From: Candidatus Saccharimonadota bacterium
GTDB lineage: Bacteria; Patescibacteriota; Saccharimonadia; Saccharimonadales; UBA10212
Assembly: GCA_016187175.1 (NCBI GenBank)
Contig: JACPKG010000003.1
Coordinates: 1-46,542, forward strand
Length of the DNA: 46,542 nt
Reading direction: 5' to 3'
In this document: piece after piece, positions 6,315 to 15,987 of the stretch
Position numbering within the stretch: the stretch's first letter is position 1
Layout of the letters: the number at the start of each line of letters is the position of its first letter
Translations under genes and position numbers: made by a program
The notes under the pieces: generated by a model
Database searches by the model: none
Seen by the model: only the letters and a program-made list of their open reading frames with translations
What the model was told of the DNA's origin: nothing

Positions 6315-6803
6315 ATGACAAAGTTGCAAGATCAACTTAATAGGTGGATGACCGGTACGGACGAATTACCAGCCCTGCGCGATAAAGACTGGTATCTAAG
6401 CAATTTGTTAGGAGCCGTCTTCGTAGTTATGGCAATCCTGCAAATCATCAGCTTTAATGGTTTTAAAGAAGCGCTTAGGGGAATTGGCCTGACCTCTAGT
6501 CCGGCGGTTTGGGCGGTGTTACTTATCATAGTTGAGCTGTGGGCAATGCTTGGTTTCTTTAAGATACGCTTAAACCCTTTGGCCCGCCGGCTTAGCGGTC
6601 TCTTTGCCGTCTTGGTCAGCGGTTTCTGGTTTATTCAGACAATGAAGCTTGTCTCCGAAGGCGCCGCAGGCCAATTGCCCGGTAGCGGGTTTTTTGGTAA
6701 ATATCTTCAACAATCACCGGGCTGGTGGACGGTCGTTGAAGCCAGCTTGCTGCTATTTACGGTGGTTTATGTTTTAAGCCTGTCTGACTCGAAGAATAAA
6801 TAA
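6315..6803 (+). CDS. Membrane protein with about 4 TM helices (possibly DoxX/MauE-like)
   Basis: SD aggagg before ATG 6315; four hydrophobic segments; family call tentative. Confidence 0.7.
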
Positions 6804-6805
6804 CT

Positions 6806-7417
6806 ATGTTTAAGTTGCCGCCACTTGGTTACGATTTTGCTGCACTAGAACCCTACATTGATGCCAAGACAATGGAAATTCATCACGGCAAGCACCATGG
6901 AGCTTATGTCGAGAAACTAAATACCGCTCTGGAAAAGTATCCCAAGCTGCAAAATAAAAAAATCGAAGACTTGCTAATCAATATAAAAAACGTTCCCGAT
7001 GATATTAGCACAGCTGTCCAAAACAACGGCGGCGGCCACCATAACCATACACTGTTCTGGGAAAGTATGAAACCGGGAGGATCCCCGTACCATTCGGTGC
7101 AGGGCACAGCCCAAAACGTACCCGAAGCTATCACTACAACGTTCGGTAGCTTAGATAACTTCAAAGCCAAGATGACCGAAGCCGCCATCAACCGTTTTGG
7201 CTCCGGCTGGGCCTGGCTGGTCAAAAATAGTAACAATCTAGAGGTTTATTCCACGGCCAACCAGGACAGCCCGTTGATGGAAGGTAAAACACCAATTCTT
7301 GGGCTAGATGTCTGGGAACACGCCTACTATTTGAAATACCAAAACCGCCGCCCCGATTATGTCGAAGCTTGGTGGCAGGTTGTGAACTGGGACGTTGTTA
7401 GCGAGCGCTTAAGTTAG
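6806..7417 (+). CDS. sodA: Fe/Mn superoxide dismutase, Mn-type residues
   Basis: [33 protein letters not shown]. Confidence 0.96.
7083..7104 (+). repeat. Short hairpin in the SOD inter-domain linker
   Basis: ccccgtacc-attc-ggtgcaggg encoding SPYHSVQG. Confidence 0.5.
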
Positions 7418-7425
7418 TCTAGGTC

Positions 7426-7671
7426 TTACTTTAGACTCTTTTTTTCACGGACTTTTTTCATAGATTTATCGATGAGTTGATTTATTATTTTTTTAAATCT
7501 TTGTAAGTGGCGGTCTGCCCACTCGAACTCCAGCGATAGAATAAAAAGTCCACCGGCTGTAACAAGGACTCCGGGACCGGGCAAGGGAATTAAAATCAGG
7601 CCAATAATAAGTACGGGCAGACCCAGAAGCGCAATAATTATCTTACGCAGGGTTCTATAAGTCTTTCCCAT
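7426..7671 (-). CDS. PGPGW-like small membrane protein
   Basis: LIPLPGPG...LSLEFEWA motif. Confidence 0.85.
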   Translation of the reverse strand: MGKTYRTLRKIIIALLGLPVLIIGLILIPLPGPGVLVTAGGLFILSLEFEWADRHLQRFKKIINQLIDKSMKKVREKKSLK

Positions 7672-7672
7672 A

Positions 7673-8173
7673 CTATAGATTTTGTATTTTAAATAGGAAA
7701 CCTACGATAATACCCAAAGCTGTAGCCAACCCCCCGATAATCAAAATTTTCAGGCCGCCTTTGAAAGCACTAACTCGAAGAATACGACCTTTAACGTACC
7801 CCAATAAGAATAGAGTAGCAAGAGCAGCTAATACGCTGGTGATTAGAGAGGTAGGATAATCCAGAATCAGTATTGGTGTAAGAGGAATTAAGCCTGCCAG
7901 CAAGTATGATGAGAACATCAACAGGCCACTAACGGAAGCGCTCTCGGTGTTACGATCTATTTTGTCCAATCCTTTTACGGCGTCGTCACTTAAATATTCG
8001 CCGGCACCCATAGACACAGCTTCGATGATAATCGCTACAACCCCACCAAGAATAACAAGGCGATTACTGTTGGCCCCGACGCTTAGGCCAGCTATCAAAC
8101 CGGTTGTCGAGACCAGGCTGTCTTCTACACCAAAAAGCGTACTGCGCAGGTATTCTCGTTTAATTTGTTTCAC
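7673..8173 (-). CDS. VIT1/CCC1 family metal transporter, short form
   Basis: FGVEDSLVS, SMGAGEYLS, five hydrophobic segments. Confidence 0.88.
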   Translation of the reverse strand: MKQIKREYLRSTLFGVEDSLVSTTGLIAGLSVGANSNRLVILGGVVAIIIEAVSMGAGEYLSDDAVKGLDKIDRNTESASVSGLLMFSSYLLAGLIPLTPILILDYPTSLITSVLAALATLFLLGYVKGRILRVSAFKGGLKILIIGGLATALGIIVGFLFKIQNL

Positions 8174-8387
8174 TAGACTTTATTATAGTAGTTTTGATCG
8201 ATAAGATATAACCTGAGGAAGTTACTAGGGAATGACCTCATCGAAACATGACCTTTTAGCTCATCATAAAATTAATAACCATAGTTCATAACTCTAGATT
8301 TCACTTCATGGTCAACTGCCTCTCTCAATCTGCCAAGCAAACAGCGTCTTGGCCTGGCAGATTGTATATGGGAAAATAAATACGTAT

Positions 8388-8461
8388 TCCGGGATCGTCT
8401 AACGGTAGGACGCTAGACTCTGGATCTGGTAATCTTGGTTCGAGCCCAAGTCCCGGAGCCA
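8388..8461 (+). tRNA. tRNA-Gln, anticodon CTG
   Basis: Acceptor tccggga/tcccgga, anticodon arm ctaga-ctCTGga-tctgg, T loop ggttcgagcc, encoded CCA. Confidence 0.96.
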
Positions 8462-8583: not shown

Positions 8584-8747
8584 GCTCTTGCAGTTTCATA
8601 AAATAGTACTATAGTTATGCTTATTCATTTATGTAATAAATATAGGCCAAAACACACAGTATGAGTAATTCGTTCATAGAACAATTCCCTCAATTTAGAA
8701 CTCCGGGCCAATTAAGAAAAGATGAAATTATATTAGGAGGAGTTGCT

Positions 8748-9971
8748 ATGACAAACGGTTTTGATAAAAAACAAGGAGATCAACCAGTACTCAATGCTAG
8801 TCCTGGAATCCTCAAAGAACCTGGCGGTAGTTCGGTAAACAACCCGCCTGCCGCAGATGAGTTGGAACCTGTTTCTTCTGAATCAGGTGGAGTAATCGTT
8901 GGAAAACCTGAAAAAATAGAAGGCACAGAAGGATTTTATAATCCAGCAGCTTGGCGGTACGTTGACAAGTACGGTGTCCCTAAGATTTGTTTATTGGGTC
9001 GTGATGTGAAAATGCCCGACCAAGCTTCTGCTACCGACGATAAACCTGTTGAATTTACTGCCGATGGAGATCCGATTGTCGGGGGCGGGCCAGATGTTGG
9101 TCCTATAGTACTTAAGGTTATAGGCCCAGATGGTAGGATTATACCCGAACTCACAAAAATAGTTTTTGAACCCAAAGTCGGGGGACCCTCGTTTGAAGAT
9201 TTCAGAGCATTATCGTTAGACGATGGCACGCTTATTTTTGGACTGACTTGGGTAGAACCCGACGGTACGCCTTTCCCTGCAATGCTGGTTACAACAACCG
9301 AAGAATTGATGGAACCAGGAACATCTGTAGAACCTAAAATTGTCAAAGATCTAGGTAGTGGCGACCAGACAACTCCCCTAGATGAAGAAGGTGTCAAAAT
9401 ACCAGGAAAAAACCTCACGCCGATTGATAGACATTCTTCAGATACAGATACGTATTCTTTCATGTTTAGGTCGCAAGGCAAAGAAAATCGTCATCGACTC
9501 CAAGTATTTTATGTTAAGGAAGGCGTAGTGACACATCGGTATGATATAAAGCTTCCTACGGATAAGGAGTGGGGTGAGTGGCAAATGGGCACGGGCGCGC
9601 CTCCAGAATGGACTGATAAGACCCGCCGAGAGGCTATTACTCTGATCCATGGGATCACAATAGTAAACGGGGAGTACGTATATACGTTCGCTTCTGCCAG
9701 GATGTATAGGGATCAAGATGACGTGCTATCGTTAGACAATATAGGCAAACCACTACTGACTTCAGCTTTGTTTGACGATGTAGTTCAACGTCATCGAGGG
9801 AGAAACGCATTTTATATTGATGGGTGGGTACCTCATCGTGACGAGGATGGCAACCTTGTTCTTCTGGAGGTGTTCGGCAGTCCAGGCGATTCACGCACGG
9901 ATAGAGTTTTCTTGGATCCGCGTGAAATAATCAGGCAATGGAAGAGGCCTGAATTGGCCGTGGCCGCTTAA
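8748..9971 (+). CDS. Divergent GH130-like beta-propeller glycosidase/phosphorylase
   Basis: Ordered motifs YNPAA, EDFR, KN, MGTGAPP, IHG match the GH130 pattern FNP, EDPR, KN, IG.GAPP, YHG; SD aggagg favours ATG 8748 over 8661. Confidence 0.6.
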   Translation: MTNGFDKKQGDQPVLNASPGILKEPGGSSVNNPPAADELEPVSSESGGVIVGKPEKIEGTEGFYNPAAWRYVDKYGVPKICLLGRDVKMPDQASATDDKPVEFTADGDPIVGGGPDVGPIVLKVIGPDGRIIPELTKIVFEPKVGGPSFEDFRALSLDDGTLIFGLTWVEPDGTPFPAMLVTTTEELMEPGTSVEPKIVKDLGSGDQTTPLDEEGVKIPGKNLTPIDRHSSDTDTYSFMFRSQGKENRHRLQVFYVKEGVVTHRYDIKLPTDKEWGEWQMGTGAPPEWTDKTRREAITLIHGITIVNGEYVYTFASARMYRDQDDVLSLDNIGKPLLTSALFDDVVQRHRGRNAFYIDGWVPHRDEDGNLVLLEVFGSPGDSRTDRVFLDPREIIRQWKRPELAVAA

Positions 9972-10036
9972 CTTAAAGTAAGAACAGAGTTTTTGCTGTC
10001 GAATTGTCCAGACCGGTAGGCTCAGCCAATAATTTC

Positions 10037-10065
10037 TTGACAGGCTTTTGATCATATGCCACCAT
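10037..10065 (+). promoter_or_regulatory. Promoter of the ilv leader
   Basis: TTGACA-17 bp-CACCAT with upstream TG; predicted +1 near ATG 10073. Confidence 0.6.
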
Positions 10066-10072
10066 GCTAGGC

Positions 10073-10120
10073 ATGCGCAACCAACTAATTAGTGAGGTAA
10101 TCATTATTAACCCAGCCTAG
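10073..10120 (+). CDS. Branched-chain amino acid leader peptide MRNQLISEVIIINPA
   Basis: Six Ile/Val/Leu codons, including a VIII run, directly upstream of alternative hairpins and ilvB. Confidence 0.8.
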   Translation: MRNQLISEVIIINPA

Positions 10121-10179
10121 CGGGTAGTTTTTTGCATATTACAAACGAAAAATAACTCCCGCAAAATGCGGGAGTTTTT
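10120..10179 (+). terminator. Attenuator: antiterminator plus intrinsic terminator
   Basis: Terminator aactcccgca-aaa-tgcgggagtt-ttt (10154-10179); gcgggtagtt (10120-10129) can pair with its 5' arm. Confidence 0.85.
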
Positions 10180-10240
10180 ATATCAAGCAGGCCAAATCAT
10201 TTGCTTAAATATGAAAATAATGAGATAATAAAGAAAAGTA

Positions 10241-12040
10241 ATGAGACGTAATTATACCGGCGCTGAAGCCACGATAAAAACCCTTGAAGAACTAGGGGTA
10301 ACGTACATATTTGGCCTTTCGGGCGGAGCCATCCTACCGTTTACTGATGCTGTTCACAGACTTGCAACAGCTGGTGAGAGCGAAATTAATTTGGTTTATA
10401 CGCGTCACGAGCAAGGCGCGATTCATATGGCCGAAGGTTACACCAGTGCCAGCGGTAAACCTGGGGTGGTGTTGGTAACTAGCGGCCCGGGTGCCGGTAA
10501 TATAATATCCGGCTTGCTGGACGCTAAGCTAGACAGACGGCCAGTGCTGGCAATCACCGGCCAAGTCCCCACCTATATGATCAATAAAGAGGGTTTTCAA
10601 GAGGCTCCTGTCATGGCTATATCTAGACCGCTGGTGAAGTGGAATCACCAACCCAAGGATTCCAATAAACTGCCAAGAGCTGTAGTTAAAGCGTTACGTA
10701 TCGCAACCAGCGGTCGCCCGGGTCCAGTTTTACTTGATGTACCGAAAAATATTGGCGAAGGAGATTTTACGGGAAGTCTAGAGCTAGCAATTGAGCGACC
10801 CGGCAAACTTGCTAAAATTAATCCTTACAAAGCCGTAATCAGGGCTAGGGATGCTATTAGAGAATATAGGGCTAACAAGGCTACCGGGGCTATTGTCAAG
10901 GCCTGGCGGACGGCCGAGAGGCCAGTTATATTAGCCGGTCATGGTGTATTAATTTCGGGAGGTACTGAAGAGTTACTAAAATTGGCAGAACAAGAAGATA
11001 CACCTGTTACTACAACTTTATTGGGTAAAGGCGCTTTTCCGGAAACTCATAGACTTAGCCTGGGAATGTTAGGCATGCACGGCACAGCTTATGCTAACAA
11101 AGCCATTTTAGGAGCTGACTTTGTACTTAATCTCGGCTCGCGCTTTGATGATCGGATCGTTGGTGATCCCAAGAAGTTTTGCAAAGGCGCCTTTATAGCC
11201 CACGTTGATATTGATCGCACACAATTTGGTAAGATGATTAAGCCAAACAAGAAAGTTGCCACTGACGGTCGTATATTTATCAAAACAATCCTTGGTGAAT
11301 TGGCCTTAAATGGCAAAGAGAAACGGTCTGACCGCTCTAAATGGAATGAAAAAATCGAAGAATTTAAGGTGCAATACCCTCTGAGCTATGAAACCAGCCA
11401 AGGACTGACAGCCCAAGAAGTGATTGACGCCGTTTATAAAGTCAGTGGTGGCGATGCCATCGTAACGGCCGACGTCGGCCAGCACCAAATGTGGGCTGCC
11501 CAGTTTTATAAAACCAATAGACCCAACCACTGGATAACTTCTGGGGGTGCCGGCACTATGGGTTTTGGTTTGCCGGCGGCTATCGGGGCTCAATTTGCGA
11601 AACCTCATGAACAAGTTATTGCTTTTGTCGGCGACGGCGGTTTTCAAATGACGTCGTATGAACTAACTACTGCCCGTAAACATAATCTGCCAATCAAAGT
11701 AATTATCTTAGACAATCAATATTTAGGCATGGTCCGTCAATGGCAAGAAGTTTTTTACGATGACCGCGAAAGTGCAGTGAACCTGGAAGATAACCCTGAT
11801 TTTGTAATGTTGGCTGAGAGCCATGGCGCAGTCGCAATAAGAGTTGAGGATCGTGAAGATCTGCAGGCAGCGCTGGAAAAAGCTTTCTCAGTTAATGATC
11901 GACCGGTAGTTGTGCACGCTTGTGTTAATAAAACCGATAATGTTTACCCTTTTATTCCTTCAGGAAGACCATACACCGATATGCTCTTAGGGCCACCGCC
12001 ACCAAATGAAAAATTGCCAACTCCGACGGGAAGCACATAG
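10241..12040 (+). CDS. ilvB: Acetolactate synthase large subunit, biosynthetic type
   Basis: RHEQGA, TSGPGA, GRPGPV, LGMLGMHG, RFDDR, DVGQHQMW, TPP motif GDGGFQM...N, LGMVRQWQ. Confidence 0.95.
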   Translation: MRRNYTGAEATIKTLEELGVTYIFGLSGGAILPFTDAVHRLATAGESEINLVYTRHEQGAIHMAEGYTSASGKPGVVLVTSGPGAGNIISGLLDAKLDRRPVLAITGQVPTYMINKEGFQEAPVMAISRPLVKWNHQPKDSNKLPRAVVKALRIATSGRPGPVLLDVPKNIGEGDFTGSLELAIERPGKLAKINPYKAVIRARDAIREYRANKATGAIVKAWRTAERPVILAGHGVLISGGTEELLKLAEQEDTPVTTTLLGKGAFPETHRLSLGMLGMHGTAYANKAILGADFVLNLGSRFDDRIVGDPKKFCKGAFIAHVDIDRTQFGKMIKPNKKVATDGRIFIKTILGELALNGKEKRSDRSKWNEKIEEFKVQYPLSYETSQGLTAQEVIDAVYKVSGGDAIVTADVGQHQMWAAQFYKTNRPNHWITSGGAGTMGFGLPAAIGAQFAKPHEQVIAFVGDGGFQMTSYELTTARKHNLPIKVIILDNQYLGMVRQWQEVFYDDRESAVNLEDNPDFVMLAESHGAVAIRVEDREDLQAALEKAFSVNDRPVVVHACVNKTDNVYPFIPSGRPYTDMLLGPPPPNEKLPTPTGST

Positions 12041-12132
12041 CAAATACAGCTACTAATGAAGCCCGCTCATCTTTCATATAAGGCTGGCGTTGACTGCTTG
12101 ACTGAGCGCCTCTAAAATAAACAATTGTTAAT

Positions 12133-12849
12133 ATGACTTAAAATAAACATGATCTTTATGAGGACCATGGCCAAAGCATAGGCCCAAAACTAAACAAGCT
12201 GCGAGCGGCGGTACTGGGAGCCAATAACGGCATAGTTTCTATTTCTGGTCTGGTGGTTGGCGTCGCCGGAGCTACCGATTCCAAAGTGGTTATTTTGACC
12301 GCTGGTGTAGCTGGTCTGATCGCTGGTGGCATATCAATGGCGGCTGGTGAGTACGTGTCGGTTAGCAGCCAACGTGACACGGAGCGGGCTCTGCTGCACC
12401 AAGAAAAATTTGAGCTTAAAAACTACCCCAAAGGTGAGTTTCATGAGCTGGTAAAACTCTACCAAGATAAAGGCTTAACCCAAGCCACTGCCAACAAGGT
12501 AGCTAGCGAACTAACAGACCGCGATGTCTTTATGGCTCATGCTGATGCCGAGCATAGCATAGACCCGGATGAGCTGGTTAACCCCTGTCAGGCGGCCATC
12601 GCCTCAACCGCGTCGTTTTTGGCCGGAGCCGCCATTCCGCTAATTGCCATTACTGGGCCGCCGGCCAATATGCGCATACCGATAGCCTTTGTGTCAGCTG
12701 TTATTGCACTTATACTCACTGGTACGCTGAGCGCTAAAGTTGGCAAAGCTCCGGTCTTGCCAGCCATCGCCAGAGTTGTATCTGGAGGCTTGATAGCTAT
12801 GGTTATCACTTTTAGTATCGGCAGTTTGCTTGGCGCCAGCAATATATAG
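12133..12849 (+). pseudogene. VIT1/CCC1 transporter, probable pseudogene
   Basis: ATG 12133 is in frame but codon 3 is TAA; conserved LRAAVLGANDG reads GANNG and lies upstream of the track ORF; SMAAGEYVSVSSQRD intact. Confidence 0.75.
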
Positions 12850-13218
12850 ATTGACCTCATAGAGACGTGCTGTCTTCTTCACACAACAATTTCGTCAGCC
12901 AGTTATTATTCCTTTCCAAAAGATATGCTCTAGACCCATAGGTTCCGCCAATTTACGCCGGCTCATACCAAAGCAAAACATTATCTGATTTAAACCCCCT
13001 TATTCCTGGAAGCTTAAGATTACCTGACTCTCAAAACATAGCTTACTAGACAATATTTTTGCCGTTTACAAGGAGGCTCATTGTAAACTTGTAAACAATG
13101 GATGAGTCACGCCTTAGGCGATGGGGTTTGATGGAGGTTTTTAGAGTCCGATGGGATTAACATGATAGTATTTAAGTTAAATTTTATAATATAAGCTAGT
13201 AATTACGGAGAGAAGTAA

Positions 13219-14486: not shown

Positions 14487-14583
14487 ATTTGCTGGACTGT
14501 AAATCAGTATAAAGCCGGTGCTATAATTGGCTAGCTCAGCAAGTTTATAGGGGTGAAGTGCTTAAGCTAAACGGAATGTAGAT

Positions 14584-15987
14584 ATGATAGTAATGAAGTT
14601 TGGTGGGAGCTCGGTGGGCGACACCAGGCGTATACAGCGAGTAGCTCAACTAATCAACGAGCTGCAAGCTAAAGAACCGGTTGTGGTTGTGGTGTCGGCC
14701 ATCGGTGGTGTGACTGATTTGCTGCTTACTGCAGCCACGGCGGCCGCTGGCAAAAACCAATCCAAGCTCACTGAGAGTCTTAAGTCCTTAAGGGGTCTTC
14801 ATTTGCAAGTGGCAGCAGGCTTAAAGTTAACGCAGTCGGCCCAAACTGAGCTTAACGATTTAGTTGATGAAAGACTTGCTAAAGCGGGACAATTACTGCA
14901 GAGTGTCTACACTCTTGGTGAGTTAACTCCTAGAGCGCTTGATGCTATTTTATCGTACGGTGAAAGGCTAAATATCCATCTAGTGGCTAACGCCATAGGA
15001 CCCAAAGCTCGTCCGTTGGAGGCCAGCAACTTTATTGTCACTGACGATCGTTTTGGCGCAGCCCAGCCTCAGCTGGAAAAATCTGTCAGGCGAACAAAGT
15101 TGGTAATTTCGCCACTTATAAAACGTAATTTTATTCCAGTCGTCACTGGTTATATTGGCGCCACAGCTGAAGGTGTCATAACCACTCTTGGCCGGGGCGG
15201 TTCTGACTATTCAGCGACTATTTTAGGCTACTGTCTGGGCGCCAGAGAAGTCTGGATTTGGACGGATGTCGATGGCGTGATGACGGCCGATCCAAAAGTC
15301 GTTAGAGATGCCCACACTATTGCTGAGCTTACCTACAACGAAGCCGCCGAGCTTTCTTACTTTGGAGCTAAGGTACTGCATCCTCTTACAATGGTTCCGG
15401 TCGCCCTTAAAAATATACCAATCCGGATTAAAAATACTTTTAAGCCTGAAATTGAAGGCACCAAAATCGCCAAAAAAATTTCTGAAAACGGAACCAGTAC
15501 CAAGGCCATTGCCACGATTGGCAACCTTTCATTGATTACCGTTCAGGGTAAAGGCATGTTGGGCGTACCCGGAGTAGCGGCCAGAATGTTTGACGCCATC
15601 GCCGCAGAGGAAATTAATGTGATGTTTATTTCTCAGGCCTCATCGGAGTTTAACATTTCTTTCGTCGTCCAGTACGGCGATGGTCGCCACGCGGTTAAAG
15701 TACTTAAAGAAATCTTTCGATACGAGCTTGATATCAGAACCATTGAGACTGTCAAAATTGAAGAAAATCTGGCTATTATCGCCGTTGTGGGTGAAGGTAT
15801 GAGAGGACATCCTGGTATTGCCGGCCAAACGTTTTCGGCGCTTGGTAATGCTAAAGTGAACATTATCGCTATAGCTCAGGGTTCTTCGGAGCGCAATATA
15901 TCGCTGGTTATTCACCAGCACGAAGTGCCCAAAGCTGTTAAAAGCATACATAATCAATTCCATCTAGCTAAGAAACAAAATGGTTAA
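14584..15987 (+). CDS. Aspartate kinase with two ACT domains
   Basis: MKFGGSS, VVVSA, TTLGRGGSDYSA, WTDVDG.MTADP, FGAKVLHP, QGSSERNIS. Confidence 0.96.
   Translation: MIVMKFGGSSVGDTRRIQRVAQLINELQAKEPVVVVVSAIGGVTDLLLTAATAAAGKNQSKLTESLKSLRGLHLQVAAGLKLTQSAQTELNDLVDERLAKAGQLLQSVYTLGELTPRALDAILSYGERLNIHLVANAIGPKARPLEASNFIVTDDRFGAAQPQLEKSVRRTKLVISPLIKRNFIPVVTGYIGATAEGVITTLGRGGSDYSATILGYCLGAREVWIWTDVDGVMTADPKVVRDAHTIAELTYNEAAELSYFGAKVLHPLTMVPVALKNIPIRIKNTFKPEIEGTKIAKKISENGTSTKAIATIGNLSLITVQGKGMLGVPGVAARMFDAIAAEEINVMFISQASSEFNISFVVQYGDGRHAVKVLKEIFRYELDIRTIETVKIEENLAIIAVVGEGMRGHPGIAGQTFSALGNAKVNIIAIAQGSSERNISLVIHQHEVPKAVKSIHNQFHLAKKQNG

Follow-up and report, generated by a model that had tools for sequence, protein, structure and literature searches.

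A probable leader-peptide attenuator in front of an orphan acetolactate synthase gene in a Saccharimonadales genome

Does a small genome from the candidate phyla radiation (CPR) regulate its acetolactate synthase gene, ilvB, by ribosome-mediated attenuation? The locus that raises this question lies in the 46,542-nucleotide (nt) contig JACPKG010000003.1 (assembly GCA_016187175.1, Candidatus Saccharimonadota bacterium), which was analysed at its full length and is called the window. It is contig 17 of a genome named G000 here; other G-numbers denote the genomes compared with it. An earlier interpretation of the bare DNA letters (the sequence-only reading) had proposed a complete ilv attenuator with an apparently leaderless leader peptide at 10037-10179. 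Judged from the sequence and its relatives, the element is a ribosome-mediated leader-peptide transcription attenuator of ilvB with a probability of about 0.8.

The leader and its predicted switch

The 15-residue peptide, the antiterminator segment at the stop codon and the 10-bp terminator with its T-run described by the sequence-only reading were all found in place. The features of the element and of its target gene are the following.

10037-10042, plus strand: -35 box TTGACA (direct reading)
10057-10065, plus strand: TG (10057-10058) and -10 hexamer CACCAT (10060-10065), 17 nt after the -35 box (direct reading)
10073-10120, plus strand: leader open reading frame (ORF), 15 codons and a TAG stop codon (10118-10120), peptide MRNQLISEVIIINPA (direct reading)
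10077-10086, plus strand: 5' strand of a candidate anti-antiterminator, pairing with 10126-10135 (minimum free energy structure of the transcript from the ATG)
10085-10108, plus strand: putative regulatory codons CTA (L5), ATT (I6), GTA (V9) and ATC, ATT, ATT (I10-I12)
10120-10162, plus strand: predicted antiterminator hairpin, outer helix GCGGG (10120-10124) with CCCGC (10158-10162), inner helix 10127-10134 with 10146-10153
10154-10179, plus strand: intrinsic terminator, stem-loop 10154-10176 and T-run to 10179 (scan)
10241-12040, plus strand: ilvB, the presumed regulated gene, biosynthetic-type acetolactate synthase large subunit of 599 amino acids

Six of the 15 leader codons encode Ile, Val or Leu, and three Ile codons are consecutive, which makes the frame a short ORF enriched in these residues. 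ATT and ATC are the two commonest Ile codons of G000, while CTA for Leu and GTA for Val are used at intermediate frequency. A start at the in-frame ATG at 10064 would lengthen the peptide by three residues. The first G of GCGGG (10120-10124) is the last base of the TAG stop codon, and an A/U-rich stretch follows. The antiterminator has a folding energy of -13.0 kcal/mol (z -3.35). The terminator, 65 nt upstream of ilvB, has 10 pairs, six of them G-C, and a loop of 3 (hairpin energy -15.7 kcal/mol, z -5.9). Nine bases (10154-10162) are common to both hairpins, so the two predicted structures are mutually exclusive.

From the sequence we infer the following course of transcription start, leader translation, pausing and amino acid response. 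Transcription would start from TTGACA-17-(TG)CACCAT at the ATG at 10073 or a few bases from it, and a 70S ribosome would translate the 15 codons of the leader. Under a shortage of charged Ile, Val or Leu tRNA, the ribosome would pause in L5 I6 .. V9 I10 I11 I12 with its footprint ending before 10120. GCGGG could then pair with CCCGC at 10158-10162 and close the antiterminator at 10120-10162, which would occupy the 5' arm of the terminator and let RNA polymerase continue into ilvB. When the amino acids are ample, a ribosome at the TAG (10118-10120) would cover 10120-10130 and no antiterminator would form. The terminator at 10154-10176 would then fold, and transcription would stop at the T-run.

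Folds were computed with a masked ribosome on a transcript cut before the 3' arm of the terminator, and pairing was barred from -15 to +12 of the A-site (an assumed footprint). For G000 the antiterminator was the best structure with the ribosome at L5, I6, V9, I10, I11 or I12, and it was lost with the ribosome at the stop codon. Eight leaders were folded in this way (G000, G023, G234, G303, G587, G506, G443b and G494, with G000 and G023 not independent). In all eight, a ribosome in the Ile/Leu/Val run gave an antiterminator that uses the 5' arm of the terminator, and a ribosome at the stop codon abolished it. In G494 two N-terminal codons were exceptions, as was a single C-terminal codon in G443b. 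In G303 the switch worked from I8 on; V4 was without the full antiterminator and I7 gave a partial one.

The counterparts of the anti-antiterminator helix in G023 and G234 include the AUG, paired with the CAU of an invariant UGCAU. This third hairpin is tentative because it was disfavoured in the fold of the truncated G000 transcript. Another candidate helix, 10061-10075 with 10114-10127 in a transcript from 10040, was rejected, since two of its pairs are lost without compensation in G023 and it is impossible in a leaderless RNA. A three-sequence MAFFT alignment with RNAalifold recovered the terminator and local hairpins alone; its 5' part was misaligned, and it was therefore set aside as uninformative.

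The terminator hairpin at 10154-10176 can also serve as a minus-strand terminator with a T-rich tail, and there is no minus-strand gene end nearby. Read-through from the gene upstream of the leader, which encodes a 436-amino-acid (436-aa) protein and lacks its own terminator here, probably stops at the same hairpin.

Leaders in related genomes

Two samples were searched, a nearer one of 401 genomes of the order (Saccharimonadales) and a wider one of 401 genomes across the phylum. G000 has 663,662 bases in 22 contigs, a completeness of 93% and 47% G+C. Its order comprises over 400 species; genome sizes are 0.5-1.2 Mb among the 60 relatives listed, which are mostly more than 90% complete, and the largest member among the 401 genomes listed has 1.5 Mb. 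Loss of ribosomal protein L30 is a hallmark of the CPR. None of the five genomes tested (G000 plus four relatives with ilvB, one of which is a single contig) yielded L30; it was found in 13 of 14 controls. By size (0.66 Mb) and by the L30 result, everything fits the CPR-like genome that the sequence-only reading had supposed.

The ilvB protein matches TIGR00118 (an NCBIfam equivalog) with 645 bits against a cut-off of 538, and it carries three TPP-enzyme Pfam domains. The gene is rare in this lineage. It was found in 2 of 49 genomes of the family, an orthologue with 53-59% identity is present in 13 of the 401 order genomes including G000, and 19 of the 401 genomes of the phylum-wide sample have a match at E <=1e-100. 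Scans of genome contigs and of metagenome contigs with the protein gave only relatives of at most 51% identity among the 80 loci listed from each.

G023 belongs to another genus of the same family, and a 20-kb region is collinear between it and G000. The following block is shared.

10025-10183, plus strand: leader block shared with G023, 91% DNA identity over 159-160 nt

Within this block 10077-10140 is identical in the two genomes (64 nt unbroken), and the spacer beyond 10183 cannot be aligned. Most flanking syntenic genes have 67-76% DNA identity and other collinear segments 67-87%. Nothing else in the 20 kb compared is as well conserved as the leader; a SOD-VIT1 block comes second. The terminator is kept in G023 with two G-U replacements. 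The two ilvB proteins are 52% identical (dN 0.40, dS 1.8), and ilvB is under purifying selection with a dN/dS of about 0.2. Groundwater sequencing runs contained the G023-type leader beside that of the window. Contigs from two runs revealed a second organism with variants at 10067, 10070, 10071 and 10076, and X1, X5 and X6 had an additional A behind 10147. Together these were exactly the G023 differences, and no independent strain variation in the leader beyond these was seen in the runs. The runs listed as containing this DNA included no RNA run. Among the same-genus genomes G001-G004 no ilvB was found; the comparison with G004 is uninformative on the leader because its homology with the window ends at about 9996.

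G234 belongs to a different family of the order. Its leader precedes ridA-ilvB and a short ACT-domain ilvN. It reads TTGACA-17-TAACTT-7-ATG, with spacing identical to that of G000, and has 15 codons for the peptide MTQRQLVIEVVILPG. The stop codon carries TAGCGGGT and is followed by a hairpin and then by an 8-bp terminator with CCCGC and a T-run. Compared with G000, only third positions are changed in the codons for Gln, Leu, Val and Pro, and elsewhere Ile, Val and Leu are interchanged. In the antiterminator the outer GCGGG:CCCGC helix is kept and the inner helix is built from another sequence, with an energy of -13.2 kcal/mol. The pattern of G000 and G234 is as would be predicted from selection on a translated, codon-sensing leader rather than on a purely RNA-level element.

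A search upstream of ilvB in other Patescibacteria had been suggested by the sequence-only reading, and leaders of this kind were indeed recovered, so that, as far as sequence can tell, the proposed attenuator logic recurs in related genomes. An Ile/Leu/Val-rich small ORF precedes ilvB or ridA-ilvB in 6 of the 12 other order genomes with ilvB (G023, G234, G286, G416, G303 and G170); in the remaining six (G058, G126, G164, G192, G356 and G393) no leader ORF was found within 700 nt. In G303 rplL has its own terminator; TACAAT-7-ATG and an ORF for MSSVFSIIVSLVLVPSHGAGCSYQ follow, and another terminator separates these from ilvB-ilvN. The leader of G286 (MNNSPILSLVAINILLARSCVAFSAYK) also has a terminator. 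The leader of G170 encodes MNSELRSIIVVIVNLARGCVAQAWIHS and lies behind a divergent class-I tRNA synthetase gene, and that of G416 encodes MNIISNIAVIIVLLAKGCVAYAPIRL.

In G416, G170 and G286 (loci L173, L175 and L172) the leader is of a second type, roughly 26 residues long. All three contain a conserved Cys-Val-Ala; the residue before it is Gly in G416 and G170 and Ser in G286, and one arm of an 11-12-bp helix codes for this motif. G416 and G170 have a further 10-bp helix whose sequence is wholly changed between the two yet complementary, with no T-run after it. This second type may act by translation control, not by termination. In G234, G286 and G416 (L171-L173) a RidA-family gene stands directly before ilvB and the leader before ridA. 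The Ribonuc_L-PSP Pfam domain was confirmed for the G234 RidA; those of G286 and G416 were judged by eye.

In the phylum-wide sample 18 further ilvB-like loci were scanned, and four had a clear Ile/Leu/Val-rich leader with a terminator. Their peptides are MAQASVIILVVIPSPPARR (G587), MTRKALVLILVQTPTS (G506), MKKQLALVLSLIINTPTGV (G443b, with TTGACA-17-TATTCT-6-ATG) and MKIIVNNVLLLVNLVLTR (G494). In G506 the segment CCTAGGGAG at the stop codon repeats the 3' arm of the terminator. Two loci were ambiguous (G459 and G528), G649 had a weak terminator-like hairpin only, and no leader ORF was flagged in the other 11, of which G688 and G443a had just 65 and 443 nt upstream. Beyond G000, G023 and G234, eight ilvB loci therefore have an Ile/Val/Leu-rich leader ORF, six of them with a detected terminator. 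With the leader common to G000 and G023 counted once, the eleven leaders represent ten lineages.

The promoter geometry was compared in the same genomes. TTGACA stands at an equal distance from the leader ATG in G000, G023 and G234; G286 has TTGACA with a 17-nt spacing to the -10 hexamer, but 5 nt farther from the ATG. TTGCTT, TTGCAT and TTTTCA are located 17 nt 5' of the -10 hexamer in G416, G170 and G303, respectively. At the position of CACCAT the related leaders have TAACTT, TACACT, TACAAT or TAGACT. In G000 CACCAT and the ATG at 10073 are separated by 7 nt (the last base of the hexamer lies 8 nt upstream of the ATG), and the same gap of 7 nt is found in five of the seven leaders of the order, the remaining two having 10 and 12 nt. 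Of the 332 genes in G000 with an upstream spacer of 60 nt or more, 46 have a -10 hexamer with at least 5 of 6 matches that ends 7-8 nt before the start, against a background of 0-6 per position. Leaderless genes thus appear common in G000, as far as sequence can tell. Shine-Dalgarno-like motifs precede only a minority of the called starts in this genome. The homologous promoters and the genome-wide -10 peak support the leaderless geometry, although the hexamer is weak, and translation of the leader ORF probably takes place on a leaderless or near-leaderless mRNA.

Other conserved segments were seen around the leader. The SOD - 81-aa ORF - VIT1 block (6803-8405, minus strand) has 89% DNA identity with G023 and is inverted relative to the 436-aa gene in G004. 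The VIT1 proteins adjacent to ilvB are 93% identical (dS 0.32) against 52% for ilvB, and the leader DNA has 91%. Such mosaic divergence over 10241-12849 hints at replacement of an allele or at recombination within the locus. A dispersed repeat at 13021-13144 occurs in at least six places on five G023 contigs (76-91% identity), one copy lying directly upstream of the G023 ilvB leader in opposite orientation. An inverted match at 13023-13097, considered as a sign of a mobile element, proved to be this repeat, and the region is collinear with G023. The leader itself was also considered as a repeat or mobile cassette and rejected: G000 has no second copy (chance matches are at most 18 nt) and no flanking inverted repeats. 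At 14492-14608, 92 nt before an aspartokinase gene are 87% identical to G023 against 67% in the coding region. A TATAAT promoter and a 5' untranslated region of about 50 nt were read there, and neither a leader ORF nor an Rfam match was seen. This segment may be another conserved regulatory leader.

Contrary evidence and competing explanations

The following results weigh against the attenuator. The 287 intergenic regions of G000 contain 943 small ATG ORFs. Of these, 61 are rich in Ile/Leu/Val and 20 have a terminator behind them; six, at four loci, show both. When the 33-nt spacer was shuffled, 5.9% of 1000 sequences gave an equally good antiterminator that could be masked at the stop codon. 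Because this chance level within G000 is unimpressive, the case for more than chance rests on conservation in other genomes. In equilibrium folding of the full transcript with ribosome masks the terminator won every time, as a kinetic switch would lead one to expect; the model therefore needs co-transcriptional kinetics, and only the folds of the cut transcript are informative.

The -10 hexamer is the weakest piece. The promoter noted by the sequence-only reading is in place, but CACCAT matches the consensus TATAAT at 3 of 6 positions and is missing from the promoter-scan list. The scan listed TTGTCC-18-AATAAT at 10004-10033 instead. With AATAAT (10028-10033) as the -10 hexamer, the leader would have 24-33 untranslated nt without a Shine-Dalgarno sequence. 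The 46 leaderless promoters of G000 have no conserved -35 box, so that the perfect -35 box and poor -10 hexamer of the leader are atypical for this genome. The earlier placement of +1 at the peptide ATG agrees with the 7-nt geometry and is weakened by the same hexamer. A candidate secondary promoter is listed below with the neighbouring features. It is not in the scan list, ends 12 nt before the ilvB ATG in DNA that is unconserved with G023, and could bypass the switch.

8661-9971, plus strand: gene for a 436-aa protein, upstream neighbour of the leader
9972-10240: spacer separating the 436-aa gene from ilvB
10221-10229, plus strand: candidate secondary promoter, TG, one base and GATAAT (read by eye, uncertain)

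A published precedent also calls for caution. Candidate ilvB leader peptides with terminators were described in Actinobacteria by comparative genomics (Seliverstov et al. 2005, as excerpted from PMC1262725). Like the leader in the window, these are short ORFs with Ile/Val/Leu runs that overlap or precede a poly-U terminator upstream of ilvB, although phylum and sequences differ. In Streptomyces coelicolor, substituting codons of the candidate ilvB leader had no effect, according to the same excerpts (PMC1262725). Look-alike leaders are therefore not always classical attenuators, and caution applies to the present one too.

The regulated gene is an orphan, since neither ilvN, ilvC and ilvD nor an Aminotran_4 (ilvE-type) gene was found in the 93%-complete G000. 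ILVD_EDD and acetolactate decarboxylase were not found there either. Sensing of Ile and Val would therefore have no obvious pay-off. The Ile/Val-responsive regulation proposed by the sequence-only reading agrees with the sequence and the predicted folds, but the pathway that it presupposed was not found. Five related genomes with ilvB, 94-99% complete and one (G303) a single contig, were checked for the same genes. None of the five had ilvD or an ilvC above the cut-off (two had sub-threshold ilvC matches), and four had a short ilvN. Among six distant members of the phylum, five (G506, G443, G494, G528 and G459) had both ilvC and ilvD, three of these with a clear leader and two with an ambiguous one; in G587, which belongs to the class of the window, neither gene was found.

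The missing pathway could mean that the leader is a relic, an ilv attenuator left behind when branched-chain synthesis was lost and now a constitutive partial terminator or inactive. The leader is probably older than the loss, because phylum members with ilvC and ilvD have such leaders, and its -10 hexamer is degraded compared with those of its relatives. A relic would hardly be expected, however, to be better conserved than its surroundings (91%, where most flanking genes reach 67-76% and SOD-VIT1 89%), to keep ORF, stop-codon overlap and terminator intact in every leader-bearing member of the order, or to precede a gene that is itself under purifying selection. We consider it unlikely.

A structured RNA switch or small RNA that binds a ligand or protein independently of translation, with an incidental ORF, is very improbable. 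The 64 nt identical between two genera include all synonymous sites of 14 codons, which looks like constraint at the RNA level, and the leader fold is more stable than shuffled sequences (z -3.6 to -3.8). Between G000 and G234, by contrast, the nucleotides vary freely while frame, length, Ile/Val/Leu run and stop overlap are kept, and the eleven leaders share the Ile/Leu/Val-rich ORF and the hairpin logic but no common RNA sequence. No Rfam family reached its gathering score; the sub-threshold leader families were mostly matches to the terminator, also on the minus strand. The best plus-strand match was Thr_leader (RF00506), itself a leader-peptide attenuator, at 10071-10182 with 27.6 bits against a gathering score of 55. 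Membership was rejected, as most of the score came from the terminator and the first helix had many non-standard pairs.

That the hairpin is simply the terminator of the 436-aa gene, with a chance small ORF in a long 3' spacer, is scarcely credible. In its favour, no other terminator lies between the gene stop at 9971 and 10154, the G004 homologue has its own hairpin about 35 nt past its stop codon, terminators 100-270 nt behind genes occur elsewhere in G000, and Ile/Leu/Val-rich small ORFs beside terminators are found at four loci. Against it, the block accompanies ilvB and not the 436-aa gene, G023 has leader and ilvB in a different upstream context, the leaders of G234, G303 and G170 sit behind unrelated or divergent genes, and the G004 homology stops before the leader.

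The 436-aa protein had no Pfam or NCBIfam match. In a protein atlas it lies near GH130/DUF1861-type glycoside phosphorylases (feature score 0.93, structure TM 0.65-0.67), which is a lead only. The gene was present in 3 of 40 other family genomes searched, and also in G004, which was outside that sample.

Known systems and significance

In Escherichia coli the leader peptides ilvL (ilvGMEDA) and ivbL (ilvBN) contain runs of Ile, Val and Leu codons, and the ribosome selects between an antiterminator and a terminator that lies before the first structural gene. The attenuator proposed here would follow the same logic. Those leaders of E. coli have about double the length, are led by a Shine-Dalgarno sequence and use a 1:2/2:3/3:4 pairing scheme with region 1 in the regulatory codons, whereas the present leader is probably leaderless and its switch would hinge on the stop codon.

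The closest described system appears to be the ilvBNC attenuator of Corynebacterium glutamicum (Morbach et al., as excerpted from PMC11857589), which has a 15-residue IlvL, MTIIRLVVVTARRLP, and three hairpins, and whose transcription start is one base from the IlvL start codon. Both leaders have 15 residues, are rich in Ile, Val and Leu, lie directly before ilvB and start at or near the ATG, which for the present leader is a prediction. Both would also use three competing hairpins, the anti-antiterminator being tentative here. There is no sequence similarity between the two, the phylum is another, and in the present leader the 5' strand of the antiterminator overlaps the stop codon. From leader ATG to ilvB ATG the distance is 168 nt, compared with a regulatory region of 292 nt in the C. 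glutamicum account (PMC11857589). The C. glutamicum operon comprises ilvB, ilvN and ilvC of a complete pathway, while ilvB stands alone here.

Our literature search on CPR, Saccharibacteria and Patescibacteria gave no relevant report of attenuation or leader-peptide regulation among the matches listed. A near-leaderless attenuator resembling that of C. glutamicum is, on the sequence evidence, newly seen in the CPR, with putative examples in at least ten of the phylum's lineages. The simplest history would make the attenuator an ancient feature of the phylum that once stood over the full pathway, with only the acetolactate synthase and the switch left in the class of the window.

A bolder proposal is tentative, and we regard it as doubtful. 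Saccharibacteria-type CPR bacteria that have lost ilvC, ilvD and ilvE might still hold on to a single acetolactate synthase, accompanied or not by a short ilvN and ridA, and control it by a functioning attenuator that senses Ile/Val/Leu. tRNA charging would then gauge the supply from the host, and the product would be completed by unrecognised enzymes or passed to the host. If this were true, the branched-chain pathway would be shared between epibiont and host.

Classical attenuation works only where transcription and translation are tightly coupled, and its output reflects the supply of amino acids. Its predicted conservation across CPR lineages would mean that minimal, host-dependent bacteria retain a sophisticated nutrient-sensing switch. 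The orphan acetolactate synthase under such a switch would point to an unexplained role of the enzyme or to metabolite exchange with the host. The attenuator would also offer a sequence-defined handle on gene regulation in organisms that are very difficult to grow, and the eleven leaders may serve as a starting set for leader annotation in CPR genomes.

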